Source: Myxococcales bacterium (GTDB lineage Bacteria; Myxococcota_A; Polyangia; Polyangiales; Polyangiaceae). Taken from it: DNA of 64,000 nucleotides. Below, piece by piece: positions 18,858 through 59,023 of this stretch (the stretch's first letter is position 1; each line of letters starts with the position of its first letter). The stretch is taken from the NCBI GenBank assembly GCA_009692485.1, contig SHZB01000001.1, positions 48,960 through 112,959 on the forward strand, read 5' to 3'. Position numbers and translations under genes: made by a program. The notes under the pieces are model-generated. The model was not told the DNA's origin. It saw nothing but the letters and a program-made list of their open reading frames with translations, and made no database searches.

Positions 18858-18960
18858 CCGTAGCTTGCCAAGCAAAAAACTTTTCGTGGCGCGTACGTAC
18901 TCACAAAACGAAAAACGCGGTCGGGTGCCGAAGCAACCCGTACCGCGCATCGAGTCATTC

Positions 18961-19092
18961 GCAGAAGCGGAGGGACCTCCAAGAAAACCGAGAGTCCTCC
19001 GCAGAAGCGGAGGGACCTCCAAGAAAACCGAGAGTCCTCCGCAGAAGCGGAGGGACCTCCAAGAAAATCGAGAGTCCTCCGCAGAAGCGGAC
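18961..19092. repeat. 3.3 x 40-bp tandem repeat; each unit junction forms a 7-bp hairpin
   Basis: GCAGAAGCGGAGGGACCTCCAAGAAAACCGAGAGTCCTCC at 18961, 19001 and 19041, plus a partial unit at 19081. The inverted repeat is CCTCCGC-AGAA-GCGGAGG. The array starts 4 nt after the stop of the Lys-rich mini-gene. Confidence 0.9.
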
Positions 19093-25773: not shown

Positions 25774-28389
25774 TCATCGCGCTCTTTCCGCGCTGAAGTC
25801 GCGCGCGACGCCACCCGGCTCGGCGGGAAGGCCGAAGAGAGCCGTGTCGTAATACTCGGTGCGTGGCGGCGTCTCGCTCCCCGCGCGGTGGAGAAATCCG
25901 GGCGCGTCGTCGCCGCGGTCGAGCGAAACGACCCGCGTGCAACCGGCACCGACGAGCTCGAGCGCGAGCGGCTCCGAGTTGTCGAGATAGCCTTCCGCGA
26001 CGAGCAGCGTGTCATCGCGCATCAAGCACGCCGCCATGCGAACGCGCGGTGCGCCAAGCTCGCGGGCTTCACGACGCACCTTCCCATCTGCGACGAGCAG
26101 GACGAGCTCCGTCTGGTCGCCGCGCGGAACATGGTGTTCGGCCGCGACCTCGAGCGTGAGCGCGCCTTCGCGTGGACTCGCCGAAACGACCCCGAGATCC
26201 GCGCGAATCGGCCACAGCACCGCTCCGTCTTTCACGAGACCGCGGCGATTTTCGAGGCGCGACGTGCCGAGGCCGATCGCCACCAGCGCGCGCTGCTGCT
26301 CGCTTCCATCTCGCGCGCCTCCGGTCGTGCGGCCTGCGGACTCGCGCGTTCCAGGCCGGATTTCCCACGCGTAGCGACCGCTCGTGAAGCTCCAGAGCGT
26401 GATGGGTTCTCCATGCCGTTCGCGAACGACGCGATGGAGGGCAGGGAGCGACAGCGGGTCGGGTGCGCCCTCGCCGACCGGGCTCCACGAGCTTGGAGCT
26501 TGCGTGCGTGGGGCTCCGGTTTTCGCGAGAAGAAAAAAACGCTCCTCGCGCGAGCCTTCGAGGATGGAGTGCGCTCGGCCCGACATGCGAGCGTCGAGGA
26601 GGCCGCCGCGCTCGGAGCCATCGTGCGCCGGAGCGAGCGCGAAGCTGATTCCATCCGCGGCATCGAGTCGCACGGCGGCATCGCAATCCGCCAAGCCAAG
26701 CGCGCGCGTGAGGGTGGCCTCGACCGCGCGGTGACTCCACGCGAAGACGAGCTGCCCGCGCTTCGTGCGGCACAGCGCGGCCCGCTCCTCGAGCGCGTTC
26801 GACCGAGGCGCGAGCAGGTCTGATGCGAGCAGGTCCGACGCGAGGCTCGGCAGCGGTGACGCTCCGGCGGCGAGCAGTGGCACGAACCCCTGGCGAATTG
26901 AGCGGAAGTGTTCGGGCGTGCGCGTGCCATACGGCCATGCTCCGAGCCACGTTCGTCCGCTTCGATCGAGCGCGATGGTCGTCCTTGCTGCGATCGGAGG
27001 CGCGAGCACGCGGTCTTCGTCGAGCACTCCTGCGTTCGGAATGGCGACACGCGCGCCCGTGAAGGACGCAACGACGCGCGCCTGCTCCGAAGCCGGGAGC
27101 ATGCCGCTGCCTCCGGGTCCAGTGAGCGCATGCGGCGAGTCATACCCGGGCACGTAGCGGAGCTCGAGCTGACGCGTATCGAGCGCGACCAGTCGCACGC
27201 TCTCGTGGGCACGGTCGGCATCGGGTCGCAGCGAAGTCTCGAACATCGCGGCCGGACGCGGCGAAGTCTCGAACATCGCGGCCGGACGCGGCGAAGTCTC
27301 GAACATCGCGGCCGGACGCGGCGATTCCGTCTCGCCGAGCGCCCGCCATTGCCCTTCACCGGGAAGGGACTTGCGGCACGCCGTCGCGAGTGCGCCTGGC
27401 CAAACGCGCGGCACGGACACCTCCGCATCGGTGCCGCGCCCGTAGTCCGACGGAGCGGCTGCGCCGATGTTGGGCGCGCAGCGGCTGCCCGCGAGTGCGT
27501 CGACACATGCGTCTCGGGCGACGCGAAAAACTGCGGCGACGCGTGAGACTGCGACGGCTCTGATGCTCGAGCTGCGTACGCGCACGACGTCTCCGAACAG
27601 CTCCGTCCACGATCGCTGCGACGCCAAGCGCCACGCAGCTGCGTTGTGCCCGGCCGACGGCGTGTGAACGAGCCGCGTGGGCTCGAGCTCGACCGCGAGC
27701 GAATGGGAACGTGACGCGATCTCGAGCCTGCCGTCCTTGAGCGACAACCGCGCATCGACCCACCCCGCTCCGAGGGCGACGACCGTGCGAACGAGAGTCG
27801 CCGAGTCCGCGCGGCAAGCTGCAACTTCGAACATGCGGCGTGCAGCGCTCGAGGCATTGTCCGCGCGACCAACGGGACCACCGAATGCGAGCACCGTCGC
27901 CCCGGTCGCCTCGTCGCCGCGCCGCGACAGAACCGCGAGCGTGAAGCCCCGCGTCGTGAGCGGTCCTTCGTCTGCGAGCGGCGTCTCCGTCAGGTTTTCG
28001 ACCGCGAGCACCCGCGCCGCACGGCCCTCAGCCGAGACGCGAACGCACGCGCGGAAGACGTCGCGCATCCCCGGCTCCCCTCGCCCTCCCGCGCCGCTCG
28101 CATCTTCCGCAGCGATCGCGCCGAGGAACACGACTCCACGGCCGAGCGTCGCATCGATGAGCGCGCCGTGGCTCGGCTCCCAGACGACGTCCTCGGGTAG
28201 GACGGTGCTGCGCGTGGCGTGGCCGAGCAGGTCCGCGACTTCAGCGAGCGATGCGCCCCCTCTTCGCGCGCTTGGCTCAAGCCAGGATGTGCCGGAAATA
28301 CCGGCAAATAACGCAACCATGCCGATCCACGGCGCGCGTGCCAGCGAGGCCTTCACGATTCGGACGAGCAACGGCGTTCGCGCGAACAA
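25774..28389 (-). CDS. large hypothetical membrane-anchored protein (possible tandem phosphodiester-glycosidase-like regions)
   Basis: 871 aa. TTG start with an N-terminal hydrophobic segment (WIGMVALFAGISGTSW). Internal 30-bp x3 repeat (PRPAAMFETS x3, 27231-27320). Segments such as RGQLVFAWSHRAVEATLTRALGLADCDAAVRLDAADGISF loosely resemble the partial gene at 1-451. Confidence 0.45.
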   Translation of the reverse strand: MFARTPLLVRIVKASLARAPWIGMVALFAGISGTSWLEPSARRGGASLAEVADLLGHATRSTVLPEDVVWEPSHGALIDATLGRGVVFLGAIAAEDASGAGGRGEPGMRDVFRACVRVSAEGRAARVLAVENLTETPLADEGPLTTRGFTLAVLSRRGDEATGATVLAFGGPVGRADNASSAARRMFEVAACRADSATLVRTVVALGAGWVDARLSLKDGRLEIASRSHSLAVELEPTRLVHTPSAGHNAAAWRLASQRSWTELFGDVVRVRSSSIRAVAVSRVAAVFRVARDACVDALAGSRCAPNIGAAAPSDYGRGTDAEVSVPRVWPGALATACRKSLPGEGQWRALGETESPRPAAMFETSPRPAAMFETSPRPAAMFETSLRPDADRAHESVRLVALDTRQLELRYVPGYDSPHALTGPGGSGMLPASEQARVVASFTGARVAIPNAGVLDEDRVLAPPIAARTTIALDRSGRTWLGAWPYGTRTPEHFRSIRQGFVPLLAAGASPLPSLASDLLASDLLAPRSNALEERAALCRTKRGQLVFAWSHRAVEATLTRALGLADCDAAVRLDAADGISFALAPAHDGSERGGLLDARMSGRAHSILEGSREERFFLLAKTGAPRTQAPSSWSPVGEGAPDPLSLPALHRVVRERHGEPITLWSFTSGRYAWEIRPGTRESAGRTTGGARDGSEQQRALVAIGLGTSRLENRRGLVKDGAVLWPIRADLGVVSASPREGALTLEVAAEHHVPRGDQTELVLLVADGKVRREARELGAPRVRMAACLMRDDTLLVAEGYLDNSEPLALELVGAGCTRVVSLDRGDDAPGFLHRAGSETPPRTEYYDTALFGLPAEPGGVARDFSAERAR

Positions 28390-34311: not shown

Positions 34312-34377
34312 GCTCCCGTGCCCCGGCGGGTACAAGAAACCGTGGCTCCCGTGCCCCGGCGGGTACAAGAAACCGTG
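34312..34377. repeat. 2 x 33-bp perfect tandem repeat in a divergent promoter region
   Basis: GCTCCCGTGCCCCGGCGGGTACAAGAAACCGTG at 34312-34344 and 34345-34377. Confidence 0.95.
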
Positions 34378-34396
34378 GTAGCTTCCGCCGCGGGCG

Positions 34397-41881: not shown

Positions 41882-41986
41882 GAATCCTCCTGGACTAACG
41901 GCCCCGTGGCTTCCGTCATGAGGCGCAGCGGCCTCGTGATTGCCATGGAGCGAGGGATCGAAAAAGTCCGTCAACCCTGTTGCTCT

Positions 41987-42025
41987 GCGCGTTCGCTCAG
42001 CGCGTTCGCTCAGCGCGTTCGCTCA
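41987..42025. repeat. 3 x 13-bp tandem repeat starting on the pth stop codon
   Basis: GCGCGTTCGCTCA x3. The minus-strand TGA is at 42023-42025 (the real stop), 42010-42012 and 41997-41999. Confidence 0.9.
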
Positions 42026-45565: not shown

Positions 45566-45621
45566 TTCAGAAAACGAAGTTCAGAAAACGAAGTTCAGAA
45601 AACGAAGTTCAGAAAACGAAG
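45566..45621. repeat. 4 x 14-bp tandem repeat (TTCAGAAAACGAAG) between convergent genes, containing the stop and last codons of the minus-strand gene
   Basis: Units at 45566, 45580, 45594 and 45608. The minus-strand TGA is at 45609-11 (the real stop), 45595-97, 45581-83 and 45567-69. The array begins 2 nt after the PP2C TGA. Confidence 0.95.
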
Positions 45622-48915: not shown

Positions 48916-48974
48916 TTGCGCGACGACGATCGAACTGAGATCGAGAGGACACCATGAAGAAGCTGTTTCGACAA

Positions 48975-49094
48975 ATCGGCAATCGTGAACTTGCCAATCT
49001 CTCCATGAGCAATCGCGAAGTTGGTGATCGGCAAATGGGCAATCGTGAACTTGCCAATCAGCCAATGAGCCGTCGCGAAGTTGCCGTTCGCGAA
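48975..49094. repeat. 4 x 30-bp imperfect tandem repeat; three units begin with ATG, immediately upstream of the lipoprotein start
   Basis: Units 48975, 49005, 49035 and 49065, of the form AT(C/G)(G/A)GC(A/C)(A/G)TCG(T/C)GAA(C/G)TTG(C/G).... In frame with the downstream CDS they read IGNRELANLS / MSNREVGDRQ / MGNRELANQP / MSRREVAVRE. Confidence 0.8.
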
Positions 49095-49169
49095 CTTGCT
49101 CATGGACAAGTGACCAGTCGGCTCATTGGCAATCAAGGCAAGCGCAATCCCGCCGCGAGCAGTCGGATC

Positions 49170-49748
49170 ATGGCTAGTGCCATGGGCTCATTCGTCGTCG
49201 CTGCGGGACTCGCCCTCGTCGGGGGTTGCAAAGATCCCGAGCCATCTTGCTACTTCGATGGACGCAAGTACGGCCCCGGCGATAGCTACGAAAATGGCTC
49301 TACCGAGTGCATCTGCAACGAGGACGGCTCGATCACGTGCAGCGAGAAACCCGCGTGCGCGACCGGCGCTTGTTGCTCCGGCGGCAAGAGCTACCAAGTG
49401 GGTGAAGATTGGCCGAACAACGACGCCGGAACTTGCGGCACTTGCGCCTGCATCGCCGCGGGCGCAATTCAGTGCTTCTCTCAAAGTTGCGCGACCAGCT
49501 GTCTCTACGGCGGCGTGAAGTACCCAATCGGCGAGTCGTTCCCGACCAGCGACGGCTGCAACACCTGCACCTGCGCCGGCACGAACGCGGGCGCGCAGGT
49601 CGTATGCACCGAGCTACCTTGCTTCGGCTGTACCTACGCGGGCAAGAGCTACAACACCGGCGATTCGTTTCCTGCGACGGACGGCTGCAACACCTGCACC
49701 TGCAATGAAGACGGAGTCGTCTCCTGCACCGAGATCGCCTGCCCGTGA
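49170..49748 (+). CDS. lipoprotein composed of four VWC/chordin-like (pacifastin-like) cysteine-rich repeats
   Basis: MASAMGSFVVAAGLALVGGC lipobox. Four repeats of about 40 aa, e.g. CTYAGKSYNTGDSFPATDGCNTCTCNEDGVVSCTEIACP. Confidence 0.7.
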   Translation: MASAMGSFVVAAGLALVGGCKDPEPSCYFDGRKYGPGDSYENGSTECICNEDGSITCSEKPACATGACCSGGKSYQVGEDWPNNDAGTCGTCACIAAGAIQCFSQSCATSCLYGGVKYPIGESFPTSDGCNTCTCAGTNAGAQVVCTELPCFGCTYAGKSYNTGDSFPATDGCNTCTCNEDGVVSCTEIACP

Positions 49749-50436: not shown

Positions 50437-51465
50437 TCAGGGCTTCGGGTGCGCGAGGAAGAAGTCGAACAAGGCAGCCTTGAACTCACCCTTGAAGCCC
50501 GGCAAATGCTGGCTTCCGACGAGCTTCCACTGCTCGACGAGGCTCGCGCCCTCGCAGCCGATGTCCCAGCGCGTCACCTTCGTCTCGCTGCCCACGATGA
50601 CCGTGAGATCTTTGTCCGCGGGCGTCTCGTCGGCCGTGAGCGAGCAGCCGTTCAGCATGGCCCAGGTCTCCGAAGTCTCGAGCGCGCCCGGGTACTCCCC
50701 GCCGAAGAGCTTGCCGCCTCCATAGAGGATCGTCGGATCGAGCGAGCCATGGACGACGAGGGCAGTGACCGGCTCGCTGGGCTTGCATTGCGTCTCGTCT
50801 TTGTACGTCGCGCCCGCGAGCGAGCCGAAGGCGGCGATGGCGTCGGCATGTTCACACGCCATGCGATGGGACATGAAGCCGCCGTTCGAGTGGCCGAAGA
50901 AATAGACGCGCTTGGCATCGACCGTGTACGCCTGCTTGATCTCGTCGATGACCTGACGCAGGTAGCCGGAGTCGTCCACGTCACTGCCGTTGAAGTTGCA
51001 GCATGCGTCGGTGGCATTCCAGAATCGCTGTCCGCGCTTGTCGAAGGTGCCATCGGGATACGCGTACAAAAAGCCGTGTTTGTCGGCCATTTCGGTGAAG
51101 CCGAGGTAAATCTCCTGCACCTTGCCGCTGGCCGTGTAGCCGTGCAGCAAGATCAACAGCGGCGCGGGCTCGGCTGGATCGTAGCCGGGCGGAACGTGCA
51201 CCGTGACCGGCCGGTCGCCGCCGATCACGCCGTCGAAGCCGCTGCCCGAGCTCGGATTCGAGGCACCCGCGCCGCCAGTGCCCGTGCCGTTCGCATTCGT
51301 GCCGTTCGTGCCCGAGCTTGCCCCTTGCCCAGCGCTGCCGCCGCCCGCGCCGCCCGCACTCGTGTGCGTCTCGAACCCGGTCGTCGTGTCCGTCCCGCAG
51401 CCGAGAATGCCGGCCGCCAGAAGTGCGGCCGCGAGTGTCTGAAATGCCAGTCTCGGTAATGCCAT
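50437..51465 (-). CDS. secreted esterase, PHB-depolymerase/LpqC-like alpha/beta hydrolase (lipoprotein)
   Basis: MALPRLAFQTLAAALLAAGILGCG lipobox. PLLILLHGYTASG and VYFFGHSNGGFMSHRMA (GxSxG). The track ORF extends in frame to ATG 51609 through 15-bp repeats. Confidence 0.7.
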   Translation of the reverse strand: MALPRLAFQTLAAALLAAGILGCGTDTTTGFETHTSAGGAGGGSAGQGASSGTNGTNANGTGTGGAGASNPSSGSGFDGVIGGDRPVTVHVPPGYDPAEPAPLLILLHGYTASGKVQEIYLGFTEMADKHGFLYAYPDGTFDKRGQRFWNATDACCNFNGSDVDDSGYLRQVIDEIKQAYTVDAKRVYFFGHSNGGFMSHRMACEHADAIAAFGSLAGATYKDETQCKPSEPVTALVVHGSLDPTILYGGGKLFGGEYPGALETSETWAMLNGCSLTADETPADKDLTVIVGSETKVTRWDIGCEGASLVEQWKLVGSQHLPGFKGEFKAALFDFFLAHPKP

Positions 51466-51589
51466 TGTTGGAATTGCCCTAATAGGTAATGCCCTAATCG
51501 GGAATGCCATAGTCGGGAATGCCATAGTCGGGAATGCCATAGTCGGGAATGCCATTGGCGGTAATCCGAGCCTCGGTATTGCCACCTTC
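51455..51589. repeat. about 9 x 15-bp tandem repeat (GG(G/T)AATGCCATAGTC) covering the start-codon neighbourhood of the esterase gene
   Basis: Units every 15 bp from 51455 to 51589. Three are perfect copies (51500-51544). On the minus strand in frame they read PTMAF repeats with ATGs at protein positions 19, 24, 29, 34 and 49 of the long ORF. Confidence 0.9.
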
Positions 51590-51617: not shown

Positions 51618-52901
51618 CTACATATCAGACTTCGCGGACGGCGCGGCTCGGCGTTCGGCGGCGCGGGCGTGGGCTTCGAGCCCTTCGAGGCGGGCCAGAA
51701 TAGCGGCGTCGCGTGCGAGTTCGCGATCATTGCCAGTACCGTCGAGACGCAAGAAGGTGCGGACACGAAGAAAGGTCATCACCGAGAGTCCGCCGGTGTA
51801 GCGCGCCGTTCCGCCCGTGGGCAGCACGTGATTGGGACCGGCACCGTAGTCTCCGAAGACCTCCGCGGAGCCCGGGCCGATGAAGATGGCGCCGTAATGA
51901 GAGAGCCGCTTCGAGCGCTCGTGTGCGTCGGCGGTCATGACCTCGAGGTGCTCGGGCGCGAGCTTGTCCGACGCGGCGATGCCTTCATCGGGCGTGCACA
52001 CCAACGCGAAGCCGTTTTCGAGCGCGCGGGCCGCGAGTTCCCGAGTCGAGAGCCCTTCGAGCTGAGTCGCGAGCGCACGATTGACCGCTTCGGCATGCGC
52101 CCGCGTGGTCGTGATCACGATCGGCAAGGCGTCGCTCGCATGCTCGGCTTGCGCCAGCAGATCGGCGGCGATCAGCTCGGGATCAGCGGCCTCGTCCGCG
52201 AGCACGACCAGCTCGCTTGGACCGGCGAGCATATCGATCGCGACGCGGCCATGGACGAGCTTCTTGGCGGCGGTGACCCAGCGATTTCCGGGGCCGACGA
52301 TGATGTCGACGGCCGGGATCGAGGCCGTGCCGTAAGCCAGCGCGGAGATGGCGTGGGCACCACCTGCGGCGAGCAAACTATCGGCGCCCGCGAGCGCGGC
52401 GGCGGCCATCGTGACTTGTGTAGGCCGGGGGCTCGCGACCCACACCGACCGAACGCCGGCGACGCGCGCGGTGATCGCGGTCATGAGCACGCTCGAGGGC
52501 AGGGGATAGCCGCCGCCGGGCGCATAACATCCCGCGCGCTCGACCGGGGCTATCGTGTGGCCCGCGCTGCCACCCGCGACGGCGAGCTCGAGTGGGGCGA
52601 GCGACGCGCGTTGGGCCTCGGCAAATCGCGTGATTCGCGCTGCTGTACGCTCGAGCACGCCGCGCGCATCGGAGCCGAGTGACGCGAGCGCATAGATGAG
52701 CTGTGCTCGCGGAATGACGAGCGCATCGGTGTCGCCGAGGCCGTCGTGCTGGCATGCGTAGCGACGAAGCGCGGCATCACCCCCGGCGTGAACGTCGTTC
52801 ACGATTTGGCTAGCAGCCGCGAGCGTGTCGGTGTCGATGGCCGCGCGCCGCTCGACGAATCGCTCGAGCTCCGCAAGCGCGATGAGCTTCAAGCCACTCA
52901 C
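51618..52901 (-). CDS. hisD: histidinol dehydrogenase
   Basis: GCYAPGGGYPLPSSVLM, IIVGPGNRWVTAAKK, LLAQAEHASDA and GDYGAGPNHVLPTGGTARY. The GTG start at 52901 overlaps an upstream TGA. The rest of the 725-aa track ORF is an upstream shadow. Confidence 0.92.
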   Translation of the reverse strand: MSGLKLIALAELERFVERRAAIDTDTLAAASQIVNDVHAGGDAALRRYACQHDGLGDTDALVIPRAQLIYALASLGSDARGVLERTAARITRFAEAQRASLAPLELAVAGGSAGHTIAPVERAGCYAPGGGYPLPSSVLMTAITARVAGVRSVWVASPRPTQVTMAAAALAGADSLLAAGGAHAISALAYGTASIPAVDIIVGPGNRWVTAAKKLVHGRVAIDMLAGPSELVVLADEAADPELIAADLLAQAEHASDALPIVITTTRAHAEAVNRALATQLEGLSTRELAARALENGFALVCTPDEGIAASDKLAPEHLEVMTADAHERSKRLSHYGAIFIGPGSAEVFGDYGAGPNHVLPTGGTARYTGGLSVMTFLRVRTFLRLDGTGNDRELARDAAILARLEGLEAHARAAERRAAPSAKSDM

Positions 52902-52972
52902 TTCGCGTCTCCCTCGCGCCGCTCGACGAATCGCTCGAGCTTCGCGATCGCGATGAGCTTCAAGCTGCTCAC
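52827..52972 (-). repeat. 71-bp tandem duplication of the hisIE-stop/hisD-start junction, creating a 24-codon chimeric mini-ORF
   Basis: TCACTTCGCGTC occurs at 52898 and 52969. CGCGCCGCTCGACGAATCGCTCGAGCT.CGC...CGCGATGAGCTTCAAGC is present twice. The mini-ORF 52898-52972 reads VSSLKLIAIAKLERFVERREGDAK. Confidence 0.9.
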
Positions 52973-54222
52973 TTCGCGTCCCCGGGCCGGCGCGTGATCT
53001 TGCGTGCGCGTGCCTCGAGGATCTGCTCGACCTCGGTGAGCGAGACGCCGGCCTTCGCCATCCGGACGAGCGTGAAATAGAGGACATCGGCCGCCTCGTG
53101 CGCGACCTCGTCGTGACTCGCCGCAAGACCAAGCTCGCCCGCCTCTTCGATGAGCTTCTTGCGGAGCAGCTCGGGCTCGTGGAGGAGCCGCGCGGTGTAC
53201 GAGCCCGCTGGTGCGTCGGTGGCGCGGCCGCGCAGCACCTCAGCGAGCGCGGGCATGCCGCCGAGCGCACCCCAACAGCTCGTTGTGCCGGTGTGGCAAA
53301 AGCCCGGGCCTGCCTGCACGACGGTGAAGCGCAGCGCGTCTCTGTCGCAGTCGAGGTCCACGCGCACGAGCCGTTGTGTGGCGCCGCTCGATGCGCCCTT
53401 GTGCCAGAGGCCGCGTTGGCGCGAATGGTAGATTCCGGTGCGGGTCGCGATCGCAGCACGCAGACTCTCGCGACTCGACCAGCATTGTCCGAGCGCGCGC
53501 CCGTGCTCATCGACGACGACCGTCGCAAAGAGGCCGTCCGCGCGATCGCTGACGAGCGGTGCCGCGAACGCATCGCCGAGCTCCATGTGGCCTTGGTAGA
53601 GCGCCATGCCGACTTGCGCGTCGATGCCGAGTTTGTCGAGCGCAGCGACTTCCGCGACCGTGGTGACGCCTCCGGCGATCGTGAGCGAAGCGTCTCCGGC
53701 GGCGTCGCGCAGCTCTCTTGCGCGCTCGAGATCGGTGCCTCCGAGCCGGCCCTCGCGCTCGACGAAGGTGACGAGAAACCCGCCGACGACATCACGCAAT
53801 TCGCGCATCCGCTCGGGCACGCTCGCGCCGGTCTTGGTGCGCCAGCCCTCGACGACGACCTCTCCGTCGAGCGCGTCGAGCGCCGCGATCAGCCGTGATT
53901 TCGGCAATTGACGCAGCAGCTCCGGAGTTGCGGCGGTGCCGAGGATGAGCTTCTCCGCGCCGGCATCGAGCGCTTCGACAGCACGCGCGACGCTGCGGAT
54001 CCCGCCTCCGACGCGGCAGCGTGCGACCCGGCACACTCGCTCGACCAGCGCGCGGTTGTCACCCGTGCCGAGCGCCGCATCGAGATCGATCAACGCCAGC
54101 TCGCCGATGACCCCGAAGCGCTCCGCGATCGGCAGCGGGCAGCCGGCCTCGAGCGCCAAGTCGCGCCCCCCGACGAGCTGCACGGTCTGGCCGCCCATCA
54201 AATCGATTGAAGGAATAATCAC
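52969..54222 (-). CDS. hisA-hisIE: trifunctional fusion HisA (ProFAR isomerase) - HisI (PR-AMP cyclohydrolase) - HisE (PR-ATP diphosphatase)
   Basis: N-terminal IIPSIDLMGGQTVQLVGG...GGGIRS...TIAGGV (HisA barrel). Middle YHSRQRGLWHKGASSGATQRLVRVDLDCDRDALRFTV..CHTG (HisI). C-terminal SYTARLL..KKLIEEAGE...EAADVLYF (HisE). The GTG start overlaps an upstream TGA. Confidence 0.85.
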   Translation of the reverse strand: MIIPSIDLMGGQTVQLVGGRDLALEAGCPLPIAERFGVIGELALIDLDAALGTGDNRALVERVCRVARCRVGGGIRSVARAVEALDAGAEKLILGTAATPELLRQLPKSRLIAALDALDGEVVVEGWRTKTGASVPERMRELRDVVGGFLVTFVEREGRLGGTDLERARELRDAAGDASLTIAGGVTTVAEVAALDKLGIDAQVGMALYQGHMELGDAFAAPLVSDRADGLFATVVVDEHGRALGQCWSSRESLRAAIATRTGIYHSRQRGLWHKGASSGATQRLVRVDLDCDRDALRFTVVQAGPGFCHTGTTSCWGALGGMPALAEVLRGRATDAPAGSYTARLLHEPELLRKKLIEEAGELGLAASHDEVAHEAADVLYFTLVRMAKAGVSLTEVEQILEARARKITRRPGDAK

Positions 54223-54288
54223 ATTCGCACCGGGCTCTGTTCCGGCGTCGAGTACGGCGCCGCAAGGATCACATTCGCACCGGGATTT
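54219..54288 (-). repeat. 50-bp-spaced duplication of the hisF-stop/hisA-start junction (CCCGGTGCGAATGTGAT x2), creating a 17-codon mini-ORF
   Basis: TCACATTCGCACCGGG occurs at 54219 and 54269. The mini-ORF 54219-54272 reads VILAAPYSTPEQSPVRM. Confidence 0.9.
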
Positions 54289-55027
54289 CCGCGGCGGCGA
54301 GCGCGCGCTTCAGATCGCCGACGGTGACTTCGCCGTCGTGAAGGATCGATGCCGCGAGCACTGCGCTTGCCCCCGCGCGCACGGCCTCGAGCATGTGCTG
54401 TGCGTGTGCGGCGCCGCCCGACGCGACCACCGGGATGCGTACCGCGCTCGTGACAGCCCCGATCAACTCGATGTCGTAACCGGCGCGCGTGCCGTCGCGA
54501 TCCCAGCTCGTCAGCACGATCTCTCCGGCGCCGCGTGACGCCGCCTCTCGTGCCCACGCGACCGCGCAGCGCGAGGTTCGCTCTTTGCCAGAGCGCACGA
54601 CCAGCTCCCAGCCCGCGCCATCTTGGCGGCGCGCGGCATCGAGCGCGAGCACCGTGCATTGACTGCCGAAGGTCCTGGCGAGTCGGTCGAGCAGCGACGG
54701 CTCGAGCGCCGCTGCCGTGTTGCTCGCGACCTTGTCGGCCCCCGCCTCGAGCAGAGCGCGCGCATCTTCGATGGTGCGCACGCCGCCGCCCACCGTGAGC
54801 GGAATTCCGAGGACCGCGCGCACCCGACGCACCGTCTCGGTGGCATTGCCGCGCCCTTCCGGCGTCGCCGAGACATCGAGCATCACGAGTTCGTCGGCAC
54901 CTTGCGCCTCGTACGCGAGGGCACGCTCGGTCGGATCACCCGCATCGCGCATCCCGCTGAAGCGCACGCCCTTCACGACGCGACCGGCGTCGATGTCGAG
55001 GCACGGGACGACGCGAATCGTCAGCAC
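54269..55027 (-). CDS. hisF: imidazole glycerol phosphate synthase cyclase subunit
   Basis: VLTIRVVPCLDIDAGRVVKGVRF, GADELVMLD, IPLTVGGGVRT and IPVVASGGA. The GTG at 55027 overlaps the hisH stop (GTGCTGA). Confidence 0.93.
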   Translation of the reverse strand: MLTIRVVPCLDIDAGRVVKGVRFSGMRDAGDPTERALAYEAQGADELVMLDVSATPEGRGNATETVRRVRAVLGIPLTVGGGVRTIEDARALLEAGADKVASNTAAALEPSLLDRLARTFGSQCTVLALDAARRQDGAGWELVVRSGKERTSRCAVAWAREAASRGAGEIVLTSWDRDGTRAGYDIELIGAVTSAVRIPVVASGGAAHAQHMLEAVRAGASAVLAASILHDGEVTVGDLKRALAAAEIPVRM

Positions 55028-55632
55028 GCGCGCACCTTCGCGAGCCAGCGCCCGAGCAGCGCGTGTCCCCATGCGCCGCTCAGCTCGGGATGAAATTGAC
55101 ACGCGAGCAACGCCCCCTTTTCGAGCGCGGCGACGAAGGGACTTCCGTGCACGGCGAGCGCCCCCGAGTAGCCAGCGGGGAGCGCATCGAGCCGATACGA
55201 GTTCGCGAAATAGGCATGCCCGCTCGCGAGCAGCGTCGAGTCCAGGGCGGGCTCGACCAGGTTCCAGCCGAGCTGCGGCACGACCAGCCCCGCGCGATCT
55301 TCAAATCGTCGCACCGCCGCGTCGATCACGCCGAGGCCGGAAATTCCGGGACTTTCTTCGCTTTCGCGACACAAGAGCTGAAGGCCGAGACACACGCACA
55401 ACAGGGCTCGGCCCTCACGCGCGCGCTTCGTGAGCGCCACGGCGAGCCCCGTCGCCTCGAGCCGCGCCATGCCCGCACCGAACGCGCCGACCCCCGGCAA
55501 CACCACGCGCTCGGCGGCGGCGACGACGCTCGCATCGGTCGACAGCCGGGGCGCGGCACCGACGCGAACGAGGGCGGCGCACACCGAGGCGAGGTTCGCC
55601 GTGCCGGTATCGACGACGATGACCTCGCTCAC
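55021..55632 (-). CDS. hisH: imidazole glycerol phosphate synthase glutamine amidotransferase subunit
   Basis: VIVVDTGTANLASV, LPGVGAFG, LCVCLGLQLL and FHPELS. The GTG at 55632 overlaps the stop of the last mini-ORF. Confidence 0.9.
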   Translation of the reverse strand: MSEVIVVDTGTANLASVCAALVRVGAAPRLSTDASVVAAAERVVLPGVGAFGAGMARLEATGLAVALTKRAREGRALLCVCLGLQLLCRESEESPGISGLGVIDAAVRRFEDRAGLVVPQLGWNLVEPALDSTLLASGHAYFANSYRLDALPAGYSGALAVHGSPFVAALEKGALLACQFHPELSGAWGHALLGRWLAKVRAC

Positions 55633-55775
55633 GAGAGCGCCTCGCCGCTCGGAGCGAACGCGCATGTCTTCATCGCAAGCACCGCGTCATCGAAGGCACC
55701 GCGTCATTGCAAGCACCGCGTCATCGCAAGCACCGCGTCATCGAAAGCACCGCGTCATCGAGAGCACCGCGTCAC
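55629..55775 (-). repeat. six 17-bp tandem units plus one 45-nt ORF forming seven chained mini-ORFs between hisB and hisH
   Basis: Plus-strand CATCG(C/A)A(A/G)GCACCGCGT units. The minus-strand stops at 55772, 55755, 55738, 55721, 55704, 55687, 55670 and 55629 each overlap the next GTG/ATG by 4 nt. Confidence 0.95.
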
Positions 55776-56371
55776 AAGACGCCCTTCGTGCTGGCGATGT
55801 CCGTGCCGGTGATCGCCACGGCTTGCCGCAGCGCGACTGCCAACGCTTTGAACGCGGCCTCGGCCCGGTGATGATCGTGCTCGCCCTTGAGGACCTCGAC
55901 GTGCAGCGCCGAGCGCGACGCCATCGCGAGCGACTGCATGACGTGGGTCACACACTCGCACGAGAGGTTGCCGAGCTTCTCGCGACGCAGCCCGAGATTG
56001 ATCGCCGGCCACGGGCGCCCCGACAGATCGATCACCGCGCGGGCCAGCGCCTCGTCGAGCGGCGCATACCCATGACCGAAGCGCGCGATCCCGACCCGCT
56101 CGCCCAGCGCTTGATCGAGCGCCTTTCCGAGCGCGATCCCGCAGTCTTCGCTCGTGTGGTGATCGTCCACCTCGAGATCCCCCTGGCAGCTCAGCTCGAG
56201 ATCGAAGCGCGCGTGTTTGACGAGGGTCGTGAGCATGTGATCGAGAAACCCAATCCCGGTCGCGATGCGGCTCACGCCGGTGCCGTCGAGGTTCAGCGAC
56301 AAGGCCACGCTCGTCTCGTTGGTCTTGCGCGCGATCGTGGCCTGTCGTGGCGGGGTGGCGATGGCGTTCAT
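55772..56371 (-). CDS. hisB: imidazoleglycerol-phosphate dehydratase (monofunctional)
   Basis: ARKTNETSVALSLNLDG, GIGFLDHML, DDHHTSEDCGIALG and GEHDHHRAEAAFKA. ATG 56371 overlaps the mini-ORF stop as ATGA. The upstream TTG at 56392 is less likely. Confidence 0.93.
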   Translation of the reverse strand: MNAIATPPRQATIARKTNETSVALSLNLDGTGVSRIATGIGFLDHMLTTLVKHARFDLELSCQGDLEVDDHHTSEDCGIALGKALDQALGERVGIARFGHGYAPLDEALARAVIDLSGRPWPAINLGLRREKLGNLSCECVTHVMQSLAMASRSALHVEVLKGEHDHHRAEAAFKALAVALRQAVAITGTDIASTKGVL

Positions 56372-56430
56372 GATTCGTCGATGGTGCTCCAAAAACTGAA
56401 GTCGAGCGCTCGGTGTGCGATGGCGTTCAT
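56368..56430 (-). repeat. 59-bp-spaced duplication of the hisC-stop/hisB-start junction (ATGAACGCCATCGC x2), giving a 20-codon mini-ORF
   Basis: The mini-ORF MNAIAHRALDFSFWSTIDES starts on the ATGA overlapping the hisC-HAD stop (56427-29). It ends on the ATGA overlapping the hisB start (56368-71). Confidence 0.9.
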
Positions 56431-58133
56431 AGCCTCGTCGAGCCCGCTCCGCGAAGGGAAGTCAGCCGCTCTAGCTCATCGAGCGTGGACAAGAGTCGTC
56501 CCGCGCCGGCCGCGACGAGTCCATCGCCGTTGTAGCCGAGCGGCACGACCCCGGCCGCGCGGGCTGCGAGCACGTCATCGCGGGTGTCGCCCACCAGCCA
56601 CGCAGAGCTCACGTTGAGCAGGGCGAGCGCGCGCAGCACCGGCTCGGGGCTTGGCTTCAGCGGCGCGTCCTCCATGCACACCAGCGTCTTGAACAAGGGC
56701 GCGAGCTCGAAGCGCGCGAGGAAGCGTTCGGCGTCGGCGCGCGGTCGGCCGGTGACGATGCCAAGCGGCAGACGGGCGGCGAGGCGCTCGAGCAATTCAC
56801 GCGCACACAAGAGCGTCTCTTGTTCGTGAAGTCCCGCAATTCCCTGCGTTTCGTCGCCTTGGTAGAGCAACTCGAAGCGCGCCTTCACGTCCGCGAACGC
56901 CGCTGTGACCCCGTGCTCAAGGAGCAGCGCGTGGGTCAGGTGCCAGTCGTTGTTCGCGTCGCCCGCGGCCTTTTTTCGCGCCACGTCTTCGTGTGTCACG
57001 ACTGCGCCGAAGCTCGCTGCGGTCGCAATGATCGCCTCCCGATACGACCCGCGCACGTCGGCGAGCACACCGTCCATATCGAAGAGCAGCGCCTCGGGGG
57101 CGAGCACCGCATCGAGCGCCGCCGAGAGCCGCGCGAAGGCTGGTTCATCCGACGGACACGTGATGCGCGCCATGCCGTCGAGCTTGCCGTGGCCCGGCCA
57201 GATGCGCACGGCGATCCCAAGTCCCGCGAGCCCGTCGCAGAACCACTCGGCGTCCCTCGGCCGCGCGAGGACGAAGTTTGCCTGCGACGGGTGCGCCACG
57301 CATCCGAGCCTCTCGAGTCGCTCGCCGAGCCGCGTTCGCTCGATCTTTACCTGCGCGACATGGCGGCGCATGTGCGGCTCACCCTCGTCGAGCCATCGCA
57401 TCGCGAGCGCCACCGCCGGCGAGCTGACGGCATACGGTTGCCCCGTCCCACGCAGCCAGTCGATGACCAAGGGCTGCGCGATGACGTAGCCGACCCGCAG
57501 TCCGGCGAGGCCCCACGCTTTCGACAGCGTGCGAAACACGAGCGCGTTTTCGTATGCGAGCGCCGTGTGCGTGAGGTCTTCGTCGGCGAACTCGGCATAC
57601 GCGAGATCGACGAACAGCGCCGCATCGCCCGCGGCCTCGGCCACGCGCCGAAGCTCGCCCGCGGTGATCGCCGCGCCGGTAGGATTGTTCGGCGTGACGA
57701 GCGCGACCGCCCCCGTGTTTGCGTTCAGCTCGCGCAGGACCGCATCCACGGGATACGCGCCCGTTGGCCACGGCACCTCGCGCACCGTCGCGCCCGCGAG
57801 CGCCGCGTAGCGCGGAAGCATCTCGAAGGTGGGCACCGGCAACACGAGCTCGCGACCCGGCCACAACAGCGCTTGGCATGCCCGCGCGAGCGCATCGTCG
57901 GCGCCGCAGGTCGTCAAGACGCAGTCGGGCCCGACTCCGAGGCGAGCCGCGAGCTTGCGTTCGAGCGCGCGCGCGTCGGGATAGCGCCGCAACAGCTCTG
58001 CTGACTCCAGCGCAGCGAGCAAGCCCACGGGTGGCAGCGGCCCCTCGTTGCTGTCGAGCTTCAAGTCGATGGGCGCACCGTGCCGCGGCACGTGATAGCT
58101 GCCCTGGCGCGCGATGACGGGATTCGGCTTCAT
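56427..58133 (-). CDS. hisC: histidinol-phosphate aminotransferase fused to a C-terminal HAD-superfamily phosphatase domain
   Basis: The N-terminal ~355 aa have DLKLDSNEGP, NPNNPTG and FRTLSKAWGLAGLRVGY (PLP Lys). The C-terminal ~210 aa have LLFDMDGVLADV, GIVTGRPR and LVGDTRDDVLAARAAG (HAD motifs I-IV). An alternative GTG start at 58154 overlaps the hisG stop. Confidence 0.88.
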   Translation of the reverse strand: MKPNPVIARQGSYHVPRHGAPIDLKLDSNEGPLPPVGLLAALESAELLRRYPDARALERKLAARLGVGPDCVLTTCGADDALARACQALLWPGRELVLPVPTFEMLPRYAALAGATVREVPWPTGAYPVDAVLRELNANTGAVALVTPNNPTGAAITAGELRRVAEAAGDAALFVDLAYAEFADEDLTHTALAYENALVFRTLSKAWGLAGLRVGYVIAQPLVIDWLRGTGQPYAVSSPAVALAMRWLDEGEPHMRRHVAQVKIERTRLGERLERLGCVAHPSQANFVLARPRDAEWFCDGLAGLGIAVRIWPGHGKLDGMARITCPSDEPAFARLSAALDAVLAPEALLFDMDGVLADVRGSYREAIIATAASFGAVVTHEDVARKKAAGDANNDWHLTHALLLEHGVTAAFADVKARFELLYQGDETQGIAGLHEQETLLCARELLERLAARLPLGIVTGRPRADAERFLARFELAPLFKTLVCMEDAPLKPSPEPVLRALALLNVSSAWLVGDTRDDVLAARAAGVVPLGYNGDGLVAAGAGRLLSTLDELERLTSLRGAGSTRL

Positions 58134-58150
58134 GGCAGCGCGCTGCCCGC

Positions 58151-59023
58151 TCACGGCACGATCTGCATCAGGCGCGACACCACGATATCGGTGCCGCCGC
58201 GGGCCTTGAGCTCGGGGATGAGCCGCGGGAGCAACTCGCGTGGAACCGCGGCTTTTACGGCAAATGCGTCCGAACCGGCGAGCGGCGACACGGTCGGCTG
58301 GCGCATGCAAGGCAAGGCCGCAATCACGCTCGCGAGCGCGCTCGCCGCCACGTTCACTTCGAGCATGACGCGCTTCCTTGCGTCGAGCACCGACCGCAAG
58401 ACCAGCACCAGCTCTTCCAGCGCGGCGCGTTTGTGCGGCACCTCGAGCGCCCGGCGACTGGCATAGAGGCGCGTGGAAGAACGCAGCAGCTCATCGATGA
58501 TCGCCAGCCCGTTCTGCGCCAGCGTCGCGCCCGTGGCGGTGTTGTCGACGATGCAGTCGGCGTCCTCCGGCGGAAACACCTCGGTCGCGCCATACGAGCG
58601 CACGAAGGTCGCATCGAGCCCGCGCCGCGCGATCCATCCGCGCGCGAGCCGTTCGTACTCGGAGGCGACGACGACCCGGCGGGTCGGCAGCGCGCCATCG
58701 ACGAGCAGCTCTTCGGGTGCTGCCGCCACGATCCGCACCGGATCGAGCTCGGTGTCGAGCAGCTCCACGACGTCGGCCTCCAGCTCTTCTACCCAGTCGG
58801 CCCCGCCAAACCCGACATCGCGCGTGCCGATATGCAGCATCTCGATGATGTTCTGCGGCTTCAGCACCTTGGTGACCGTGTCCGGCAGCGACACCACCGG
58901 TCGATAGCCGCGCTCCGCGAGCCGCACGCCGATCCCCGCGTCCTCGAGCAGCGTGACGACGCCGCGTTGCATATGCCCCTTCGGCAGGGCGAGCTTGAGA
59001 GTGGGATCGAATGAACTAGGCAT
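58151..59023 (-). CDS. hisG: ATP phosphoribosyltransferase (long form)
   Basis: LKLALPKGHMQ, DVGFGGADWV and a C-terminal regulatory domain. ATG at 59023. Confidence 0.9.
   Translation of the reverse strand: MPSSFDPTLKLALPKGHMQRGVVTLLEDAGIGVRLAERGYRPVVSLPDTVTKVLKPQNIIEMLHIGTRDVGFGGADWVEELEADVVELLDTELDPVRIVAAAPEELLVDGALPTRRVVVASEYERLARGWIARRGLDATFVRSYGATEVFPPEDADCIVDNTATGATLAQNGLAIIDELLRSSTRLYASRRALEVPHKRAALEELVLVLRSVLDARKRVMLEVNVAASALASVIAALPCMRQPTVSPLAGSDAFAVKAAVPRELLPRLIPELKARGGTDIVVSRLMQIVP

Follow-up and report, generated by a model that had tools for sequence, protein, structure and literature searches.

Introduction

Judged by its architecture, the closest known analogue of the junction repeats described here is the mycobacterial MIRU. 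MIRUs occupy operon intergenic regions as units of 40–100 bp, each with an internal ORF that is coupled to the adjacent gene at −4 nt (PMC12548453 and PMC2734929, summarising Supply et al. 1997), and units of 77 and 53 bp lie between senX3 and regX3 (PMC4213456). They form one dispersed mycobacterial family, with a consensus shared at 41 loci, which is thought to be mobile and has been proposed to permit or modulate translation of the cistron that follows (PMC12548453, PMC2734929). Coupled gene pairs that overlap as ATGA or TGATG have been described by Huber et al. 2019 and 2023 (PMC6728339, PMC10666635), and a spacer of about 20 nt is enough almost to abolish termination-reinitiation coupling in E. 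coli and Haloferax volcanii (PMC10666635). Ribosome-delivering short upstream ORFs have also been reviewed (PMC12548453).

The histidine operon analysed here, from a metagenome-assembled genome (MAG), can be set beside each of these systems. As in MIRUs, short tandem units lie between co-oriented operon genes and hold a small ORF with −4 overlaps; strain-variable copy number, a further MIRU trait, was observed here in the 65-nt hisF/hisA unit of the closest relative. In contrast to MIRUs, the units are local self-copies of each junction and are unrelated to one another, with no dispersed family in the 64 kb searched, and the host is a Myxococcales MAG rather than Mycobacterium. The likeness to coupled gene pairs lies in the −4 overlaps at the mini-ORF ends and in an ancestral junction that appears to have been a plain −4 overlap; the difference is that two, and up to eight, overlaps are chained here through ORFs presumed to be non-functional, with reinitiation inferred from sequence. 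A related arrangement is the synthetic bicistronic design, reportedly that of Mutalik et al. 2013, in which the stop of a leader cistron likewise overlaps the start of the next gene and translation of that gene is independent of its own Shine-Dalgarno (SD) sequence or local structure. Here, in contrast, the leader would be fed by coupling to an upstream enzyme gene, and would have arisen by duplication rather than by design or de novo. With the his leader peptide and attenuator the locus shares a small ORF in a his operon; the mini-ORF differs in being internal rather than 5' and in having no run of His codons, terminator or antiterminator, which sets it outside the attenuator class. In the open-access literature we came across no account of relays of this kind arising from self-duplication of a junction.

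Results

A short ORF between hisC-HAD and hisB

The window, by which we mean the whole 64 kb stretch of DNA that was analysed (66% G+C), contains a minus-strand histidine operon whose genes were assigned from Pfam and NCBIfam matches:

59161-58151, minus strand: hisG (Pfam/NCBIfam)
56427-58154, minus strand: hisC-HAD fusion, histidinol-phosphate aminotransferase plus TIGR01548-type HAD hydrolase (Pfam Aminotran_1_2 and HAD; NCBIfam hisC and TIGR01548)
55772-56371, minus strand: hisB, imidazoleglycerol-phosphate dehydratase of 199 aa (Pfam IGPD; start ATG 56371)
55632-55021, minus strand: hisH (Pfam/NCBIfam; probable start GTG 55632)
about 55027-54269, minus strand: hisF (Pfam/NCBIfam)
54222-52969, minus strand: hisA-hisIE fusion (Pfam/NCBIfam)
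52901-51618, minus strand: hisD (Pfam/NCBIfam)

The hisC-HAD gene starts at GTG 58154, overlapping the hisG stop (GTGA), and ends at TGA 56429-56427; its product scores 147 bits against TIGR01548 (NCBIfam cutoff 140.2). The fusions of hisC with a TIGR01548-type HAD (56427-58154) and of hisA with hisIE (52969-54222), both on the minus strand, are unusual, and both are common to the closest relative (L082). Since hisB here encodes IGPD only, the HAD part is possibly the missing histidinol-phosphate phosphatase.

Between hisC-HAD and hisB lies a short ORF, flanked and overlapped by two related stretches of sequence:

56368-56430, minus strand: mini-ORF MNAIAHRALDFSFWSTIDES, 20 codons; its ATG overlaps the HAD stop (ATGA 56430-56427) and its TGA overlaps the hisB ATG (ATGA 56371-56368)
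56412-56471, minus strand: copy U1, 60 nt; the last 41 nt of hisC-HAD (GAGCGGCTGACTTCCCTTCGCGGAGCGGGCTCGACGAGGCT), then ATGAACGCCATCGC and ACACC
56354-56411, minus strand: copy U2, 58 nt; the HAD 3' end in decayed form (GAGCGCTCGACTTCAGTTTTTGGAGCACCATCGACGAATC), then the working hisB start ATGAACGCCATCGC and CACC

Both ends of the mini-ORF are canonical co-directional NTGA overlaps of −4 nt, the geometry seen at coupled gene pairs, and the encoded peptide is a chimera that joins the first five HisB codons to what is left of the HAD tail, read in a shifted frame. A sequence-only reading of this DNA had described the GAGSTRL-TGA end with its ATGA overlap, the ATG at 56430, the 20-codon ORF and the TGA (56370-56368) lying over the hisB ATG 56371 (MNAIATPP...), and each of these elements is present as it had been reported.

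The assignment of the hisB start matters for this arrangement. The window HisB is 100% identical to a 199-aa NCBI-annotated protein of a Myxococcales MAG, which corresponds to the version starting at ATG 56371, and the nearest HisB homologues begin MNA, one of them VNA. A TTG at 56392 in the hisB frame, which the same reading had named as a start that would make the mini-ORF irrelevant, was rejected: it has no SD, and both the NCBI product and the homologue N-termini support the ATG. No properly spaced SD was found for either hisB or hisA, while hisH and hisD have good SDs of their own, with GAGG placed 7 nt before the hisH GTG 55632.

The RNA of the junction is less structured than shuffled sequences (z = +1.81), and the junction region has no Rfam match, no promoter and, on the minus strand, no terminator. 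An RNA element at the junction was ruled out on these grounds.

Evidence for an old tandem duplication

The 14-mer ATGAACGCCATCGC is present in exactly two exact copies, 59 nt apart, as the sequence-only reading had noted, and with up to one mismatch it has three matches in the window against 0.09 expected. The duplication is larger than the shared string to which that reading had pointed. Global alignment of U1 with U2 gives 46 of 61 identical columns, and the 45-nt flanks upstream of the 14-mer, scored with the 14-mer excluded, outscore 19924 of 20000 dinucleotide shuffles (p ~0.004) and 97.4% of random genomic 45-mers. Upstream of the 14-mer an ungapped 32-nt block matches at 20 of 32 positions at lag 60 (binomial p about 2e-4), a level reached by 1140 of 200000 random lag-60 32-mer pairs (0.57%) in this repeat-rich window. 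The offset between this block (lag 60) and the 14-mer (lag 59) calls for at least one 1-nt indel between the copies, the candidates being an extra A after the 14-mer in U1 and the loss of a base ahead of ATGA in U2. The idea that two indels compensate each other in the 59-nt unit was considered and dropped, as the second lag shift depends on just 4–6 matching bases; one indel is secure.

The two copies are adjacent and collinear, with above-chance similarity along the whole unit, as is required of a tandem duplication. The data strongly support an old and decayed duplication of about 59 nt that would have taken in the last ~41 nt of hisC-HAD and the first ~18 nt of hisB. TRF reported no repeat at this junction because the copies are too diverged. 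By eye, a possible still older repeat can be seen in the HAD tail (CTCGATGAGCTA / CTCGACGAGGCTA, lag 41).

Other junctions of the operon

Three further junctions of the operon carry repeats, and two are single overlaps that serve as internal controls:

55629-55775, minus strand: hisB/hisH junction, 17-nt tandem array (TRF: period 17, 6.2 copies, 90% matches)
54219-54272, minus strand: hisF/hisA junction duplication, exact 17-mer CCCGGTGCGAATGTGAT twice, 50 nt apart
52844-52985, minus strand: hisIE/hisD junction duplication (TRF: period 71, 92% identity)
58151-58154, minus strand: hisG/hisC junction, single GTGA overlap, unduplicated (internal control)
55021-55027, minus strand: hisH/hisF junction, single 7-nt overlap GTGCTGA, unduplicated (internal control)

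The hisB/hisH array opens with GTGA at 55775, followed by ATGA at 55758, 55741, 55724, 55707, 55690 and 55673, and forms a chain of seven mini-ORFs. Six of these have six codons (VTRCSR, MTRCFR, MTRCLR, MTRCLQ, MTRCLR and MTRCLR) and the last has 14, ending on a TGA that overlaps GTG 55632. Copy numbers in this array are less certain, as the contig of a separate Logan assembly breaks inside it. At hisF/hisA a 17-codon mini-ORF, VILAAPYSTPEQSPVRM, connects GTGA 54272 with the GTGA of the hisA start (54222), and at hisIE/hisD a 24-codon mini-ORF, VSSLKLIAIAKLERFVERREGDAK (52972-52898), joins the N-terminus of HisD to the C-terminus of HisIE ahead of the real hisD start, GTG 52901.

GTG 55632 is the probable start of hisH and would give the N-terminus VSEVIVVDTGTANL. 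The region (55632-55673, minus strand) is ambiguous in that the longest ORF opens at a competing ATG, 55665, which automatic annotation may pick; GTG 55632 has the well-placed GAGG, would give HisH a normally sized N-terminus and overlaps the stop codon that closes the mini-ORF chain.

No similarity links the units of the four repeat-bearing junctions, and the window contains no other copies of them (blastn, 64 kb; chance matches of at most 14 nt). The peptides of the other mini-ORFs are likewise chimeras, unrelated to this one. From their sequences, the units are taken to be local duplications of the flanking genes' own sequence, with no dispersed element in the 64 kb window.

Tandem repeats elsewhere in the window

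Using TRF, 36 tandem-repeat loci with a period of at least 7 were found in the window, or 5.6 per 10 kb, against 0.97 in 80 other bacterial his loci. This richness implies that a high rate of short tandem duplication in the lineage supplies the raw material for such events. Many of the repeats occupy spacers or the ends of genes, for instance 18952-19091 (40 nt x 3.5, 97%), 27227-27324 (30 nt x 3.3), 34312-34378 (33 nt x 2, 100%) and 45566-45621 (14 nt x 4, 100%), the last between convergent genes. On the plus strand, repeats of 30/60 nt at 48968-49085 occupy the N-terminus of the ORF 48954-49748 (MKKLFRQIGNRELANLSMSNREVGDRQMGNRELAN) and contain start-codon-like ATGs.

Just downstream of hisD (51453-51555, minus strand), about seven in-frame copies of ATGGCATTCCCGACT (MAFPT MAFPT ...) lie at the 5' end of the next gene, which encodes a lipoprotein-like esterase with the signal sequence ...LAAGILGC. 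These units resemble the surroundings of a downstream in-frame ATG (ATGGCATTACCGAG, MALPRL), and the array looks like a duplication of the start-codon region with a period of 15 (0 mod 3), at a junction that is not overlapped. Upstream of rpsF, a 13-nt unit, TGAGCGAACGCGC, is repeated 3.4 times (41982-42025, minus strand) and opens with the stop of pth (peptidyl-tRNA hydrolase); with a period of 1 mod 3, it stands before a gene that is neither overlapped nor coupled. This would fit a frame requirement that holds at coupled junctions only.

The junction in relatives

The sequence-only reading had suggested looking in relatives for an ancestor with a single overlap, and this was found: three relatives (L091, L086 and L001) have a single NTGA overlap upstream of hisB. 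In L091 (HisB 74% identical) the junction is GAGACGCTCTTGCC-ATGA-ACGCCCCC, that is CC-ATGA-ACGCC, with ATGAACGCC conserved. In L086 (HisB 71%) it is CTTCC-GTGA-ACGCACCC, and the upstream hisC has the aminotransferase domain alone on record. In L001 (Polyangia, HisB 70%) it is ATGCT-GTGA-CGAAC; the upstream ORF there was called a hisC-HAD fusion from a C-terminal tail that matches hisC-HAD and a similar length (565 aa). A single −4 overlap, as seen in these relatives, thus appears to be the ancestral state of the junction. The HAD domain model ends about 40 residues before the stop codon of the window's protein, and the protein encoded ahead of hisB stops about 10 residues sooner in L001, L082 and L091 than it does in the window, so that the HAD tail is free to vary.

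In the closest relative (L082-L085 and L092; HisB 78% identical), the hisB/hisH and hisIE/hisD junctions are single overlaps, and hisF/hisA carries a 65-nt unit encoding the peptide MIIPAI(D/N)RM(G/D)GLAAAAELPVRT, with two versus three junction copies among strains that are 99.7–99.98% identical. Its hisB lies 150–255 nt from HAD, and no relay ORF reaches the hisB start; coupling at this junction is therefore dispensable there. The spacer between the two genes (L082 2938-3195, L084 2929-3081) contains a 21-nt VNTR with the core CGACACTTCGCCTGCGCC, in seven versus two copies in strains more than 99.7% identical. An ORF in the same relative, MLRLQAETPATDTSPAP, opens on a TGATG overlap with the HAD stop and ends 57 nt before hisB, and the HAD frame stays open past its TGA, with no start codon, up to a TGA that overlaps the hisB ATG.

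The 20-aa peptide is absent from the relatives examined. A HisB scan of genome contigs returned no close relative (best match 70% identical), and a metagenome scan with a degenerate hisB 5' pattern returned the known relatives alone and no second strain of the window's organism.

Chained short ORFs were also seen farther afield. In an alphaproteobacterial MAG (L040), the hisG-hisB spacer (2912-2995) holds four mini-ORFs, MA / MMGAAYESGMMGLAS / VSAVP / VSAVP, each ending on the NTGA that opens the next and the last ending on the hisB ATG; the chain includes a 14-nt tandem unit, GTGAGCGCCGTGCC x 2, and its first ATG lies 2 nt after the hisG stop, with no overlap. The relay architecture is thus not confined to the Myxococcales lineage. 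Other alphaproteobacterial his operons (L064, L066, L068, L070, L077, L079 and others) have one bridging short ORF each, which begins over the stop of the preceding gene and ends over the start codon of hisA, hisF or hisH, with spacings of 11–197 nt. Some of these are probably chance, and the hydrophobic 66-aa product in L064 may be a genuine small membrane protein.

Spacing of the duplicated starts

All of the spacings between successive starts are 2 mod 3, namely 59, 17 (six times), 50 and 71 in the window, 65 in the closest relative and 14 in L040, and all of the ORFs are open; the MIRU unit lengths of 77 and 53 bp fall in the same class. This is the sole class in which an ORF from the first start codon ends on the next NTGA. 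The share expected from mutation was estimated with 178 NTGA junctions in GC-rich loci, by collecting the microhomologies able to give junction-spanning duplications. Between 50% (5-mers) and about 60% (7–10-mers) of these would yield a duplication whose length is 2 mod 3: matches are commoner between sequences of equal codon phase, and sites of equal phase on the two sides of a −4 overlap lie 2 mod 3 apart. Under this null, six of six at 2 mod 3 has a p of roughly 0.02–0.05, not 0.001, and a (1/3)^n reading of the spacings as evidence for selection was dropped.

In the two old duplications (59 and 50 nt), lag shifts record indels between the copies, yet start-to-start spacing is still 2 mod 3. 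Their junction cores are exact (14/14 in the 59-nt case, 17/17 in the 50-nt case), whereas the remainder has decayed, to 20/32 and to near random respectively. The core is intact even in the copy that is free of constraint from a needed protein (14/14 at the mini-ORF start, 12/12 upstream of hisA in copy 2), while the duplicated sequence adjoining the cores is about 62% identical or worse. On this sequence evidence, frame-2 spacing that has survived indels, together with exact cores in unconstrained copies, appears unexplained by mutational bias.

We estimate the chance of a 20-codon ORF staying open in 66% GC DNA at about 0.6, which is not unlikely in itself, and a generic search for relay chains returned many hits in other his loci, some on antisense strands. 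Some bridging ORFs therefore arise by chance, and such a search alone cannot demonstrate function.

Discussion

On strong evidence, a tandem duplication of ~59 nt copied the ATGA stop/start overlap of hisC-HAD and hisB. A duplication that spans a junction in this way keeps the first gene whole in copy 1 and the second in copy 2, and creates between them a chimeric ORF that opens on the copy-1 start. As the two starts are 59 nt apart (2 mod 3), the mini-ORF terminates on the TGA that overlaps the real hisB ATG. In the relay that we propose, ribosomes finishing hisC-HAD would reinitiate at ATG 56430, translate 20 codons, terminate at 56370-56368 and reinitiate on the hisB ATG 56371. A termination-reinitiation relay of this kind would replace the lost direct −4 coupling, and the peptide would have no function of its own. 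This would be one event among several, in a lineage prone to short tandem duplication. At coupled junctions, duplications in frame 2 would persist because neither protein changes and ribosome delivery is kept, while other frames would lengthen HisB or carry ribosomes out of frame over its start.

We hold with moderate confidence that relaying ribosomes to hisB is the best explanation of the mini-ORF. Four junctions of the operon and one in the relative have the frame-2 geometry, and hisB has no usable SD. Because spacers of ~20 nt nearly abolish coupling, a 56-nt untranslated gap would uncouple hisB unless something carried the ribosome across. Against this, the seven-link chain at hisB/hisH would transmit few ribosomes, and hisH and hisD have SDs of their own. 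The sequence-only reading had proposed both that the junction was duplicated and that the copy was kept as a coupling mini-ORF; the first part is borne out by the 59-nt repeat and the single overlap in relatives, and the second is plausible.

It is possible, though we think it rather doubtful, that the mini-ORF is a neutral scar of a real duplication, irrelevant to hisB, which would initiate independently at ATG 56371. The frame-2 spacing would then come from slippage between same-codon-phase microhomologies in a repeat-making genome, as the 50–60% null and the excess of tandem-repeat loci (5.6 against 0.97 per 10 kb) would allow; the uncoupled hisB of the closest relative, the rarity of stops in GC-rich DNA and the chance bridging ORFs elsewhere point the same way. 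What this account leaves unexplained is how hisB would initiate with no usable SD, why both old duplications carry indels and stay 2 mod 3, and why the unconstrained copy-1 start region is 14/14 identical when neighbouring duplicated sequence is at about 62%, with the 12 nt upstream of hisA in copy 2 of hisF/hisA likewise intact.

A functional small protein, or a histidine-sensing leader peptide of a his attenuator, is very improbable. Beyond its position in a his operon and its having a start and a stop, nothing speaks for this role: the ORF has a single His codon in 20, lies inside the operon between the second and third genes, and is accompanied by no terminator, stable structure or Rfam match, while its chimeric peptide is absent from relatives and the peptides of the other junctions are unrelated. 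The insertion of a dispersed, mobile MIRU-like element bearing its own coupled ORF would account for the MIRU-like layout, in which a unit set between operon genes has a −4 overlap on either side, and is extremely improbable given that the units are built from the flanking genes, are mutually dissimilar and have no other copies in the 64 kb window. Equally far-fetched is an assembly or sequencing artefact, or a hisB start at TTG 56392: the source is a MAG and the Logan contig breaks inside the 17-nt array, but a second assembly, built by Logan from run SRR8561391, matches the window at 100% identity for 1071 nt through the whole HAD/hisB junction, which makes a single-assembler error unlikely (though both assemblies may derive from one set of reads), a 25% divergence of the copies is not something that assemblers generate, and the TTG lacks an SD where the NCBI product and the nearest homologues begin at the ATG.

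A relay through the mini-ORF, if that is what it is, bears on annotation as well as on mechanism. Gene callers will miss such mini-ORFs and may misplace starts, as with ATG 55665 versus GTG 55632 in hisH. A local-duplication origin can also be offered for intergenic repeats of the MIRU type; where these come from in mycobacteria, and what they do there, is a matter of debate.

More speculatively, and in our view unlikely, junction-spanning duplications might serve as an evolvable dial that sets translational coupling. With every frame-2 unit gained, one more termination-reinitiation step would cut the ratio of downstream to upstream enzyme by a fixed factor; slippage would reversibly add and remove units, as between the strains of the closest relative, and selection would hold the units in frame 2 with their junction cores intact. 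The Myxococcales his operon would in that case tune subunit and enzyme stoichiometry by self-made MIRU-like VNTRs, and the frame-2 rule would be a purely genomic signature of termination-reinitiation in an uncultured phylum.

The ribosome relay itself, if correct, would make this operon a natural experiment on coupling, with four independent duplications of different ages all in one frame. It would provide sequence-only evidence for reinitiation at −4 overlaps in an uncultured Myxococcales lineage, and would show how operons absorb insertions yet stay coupled.
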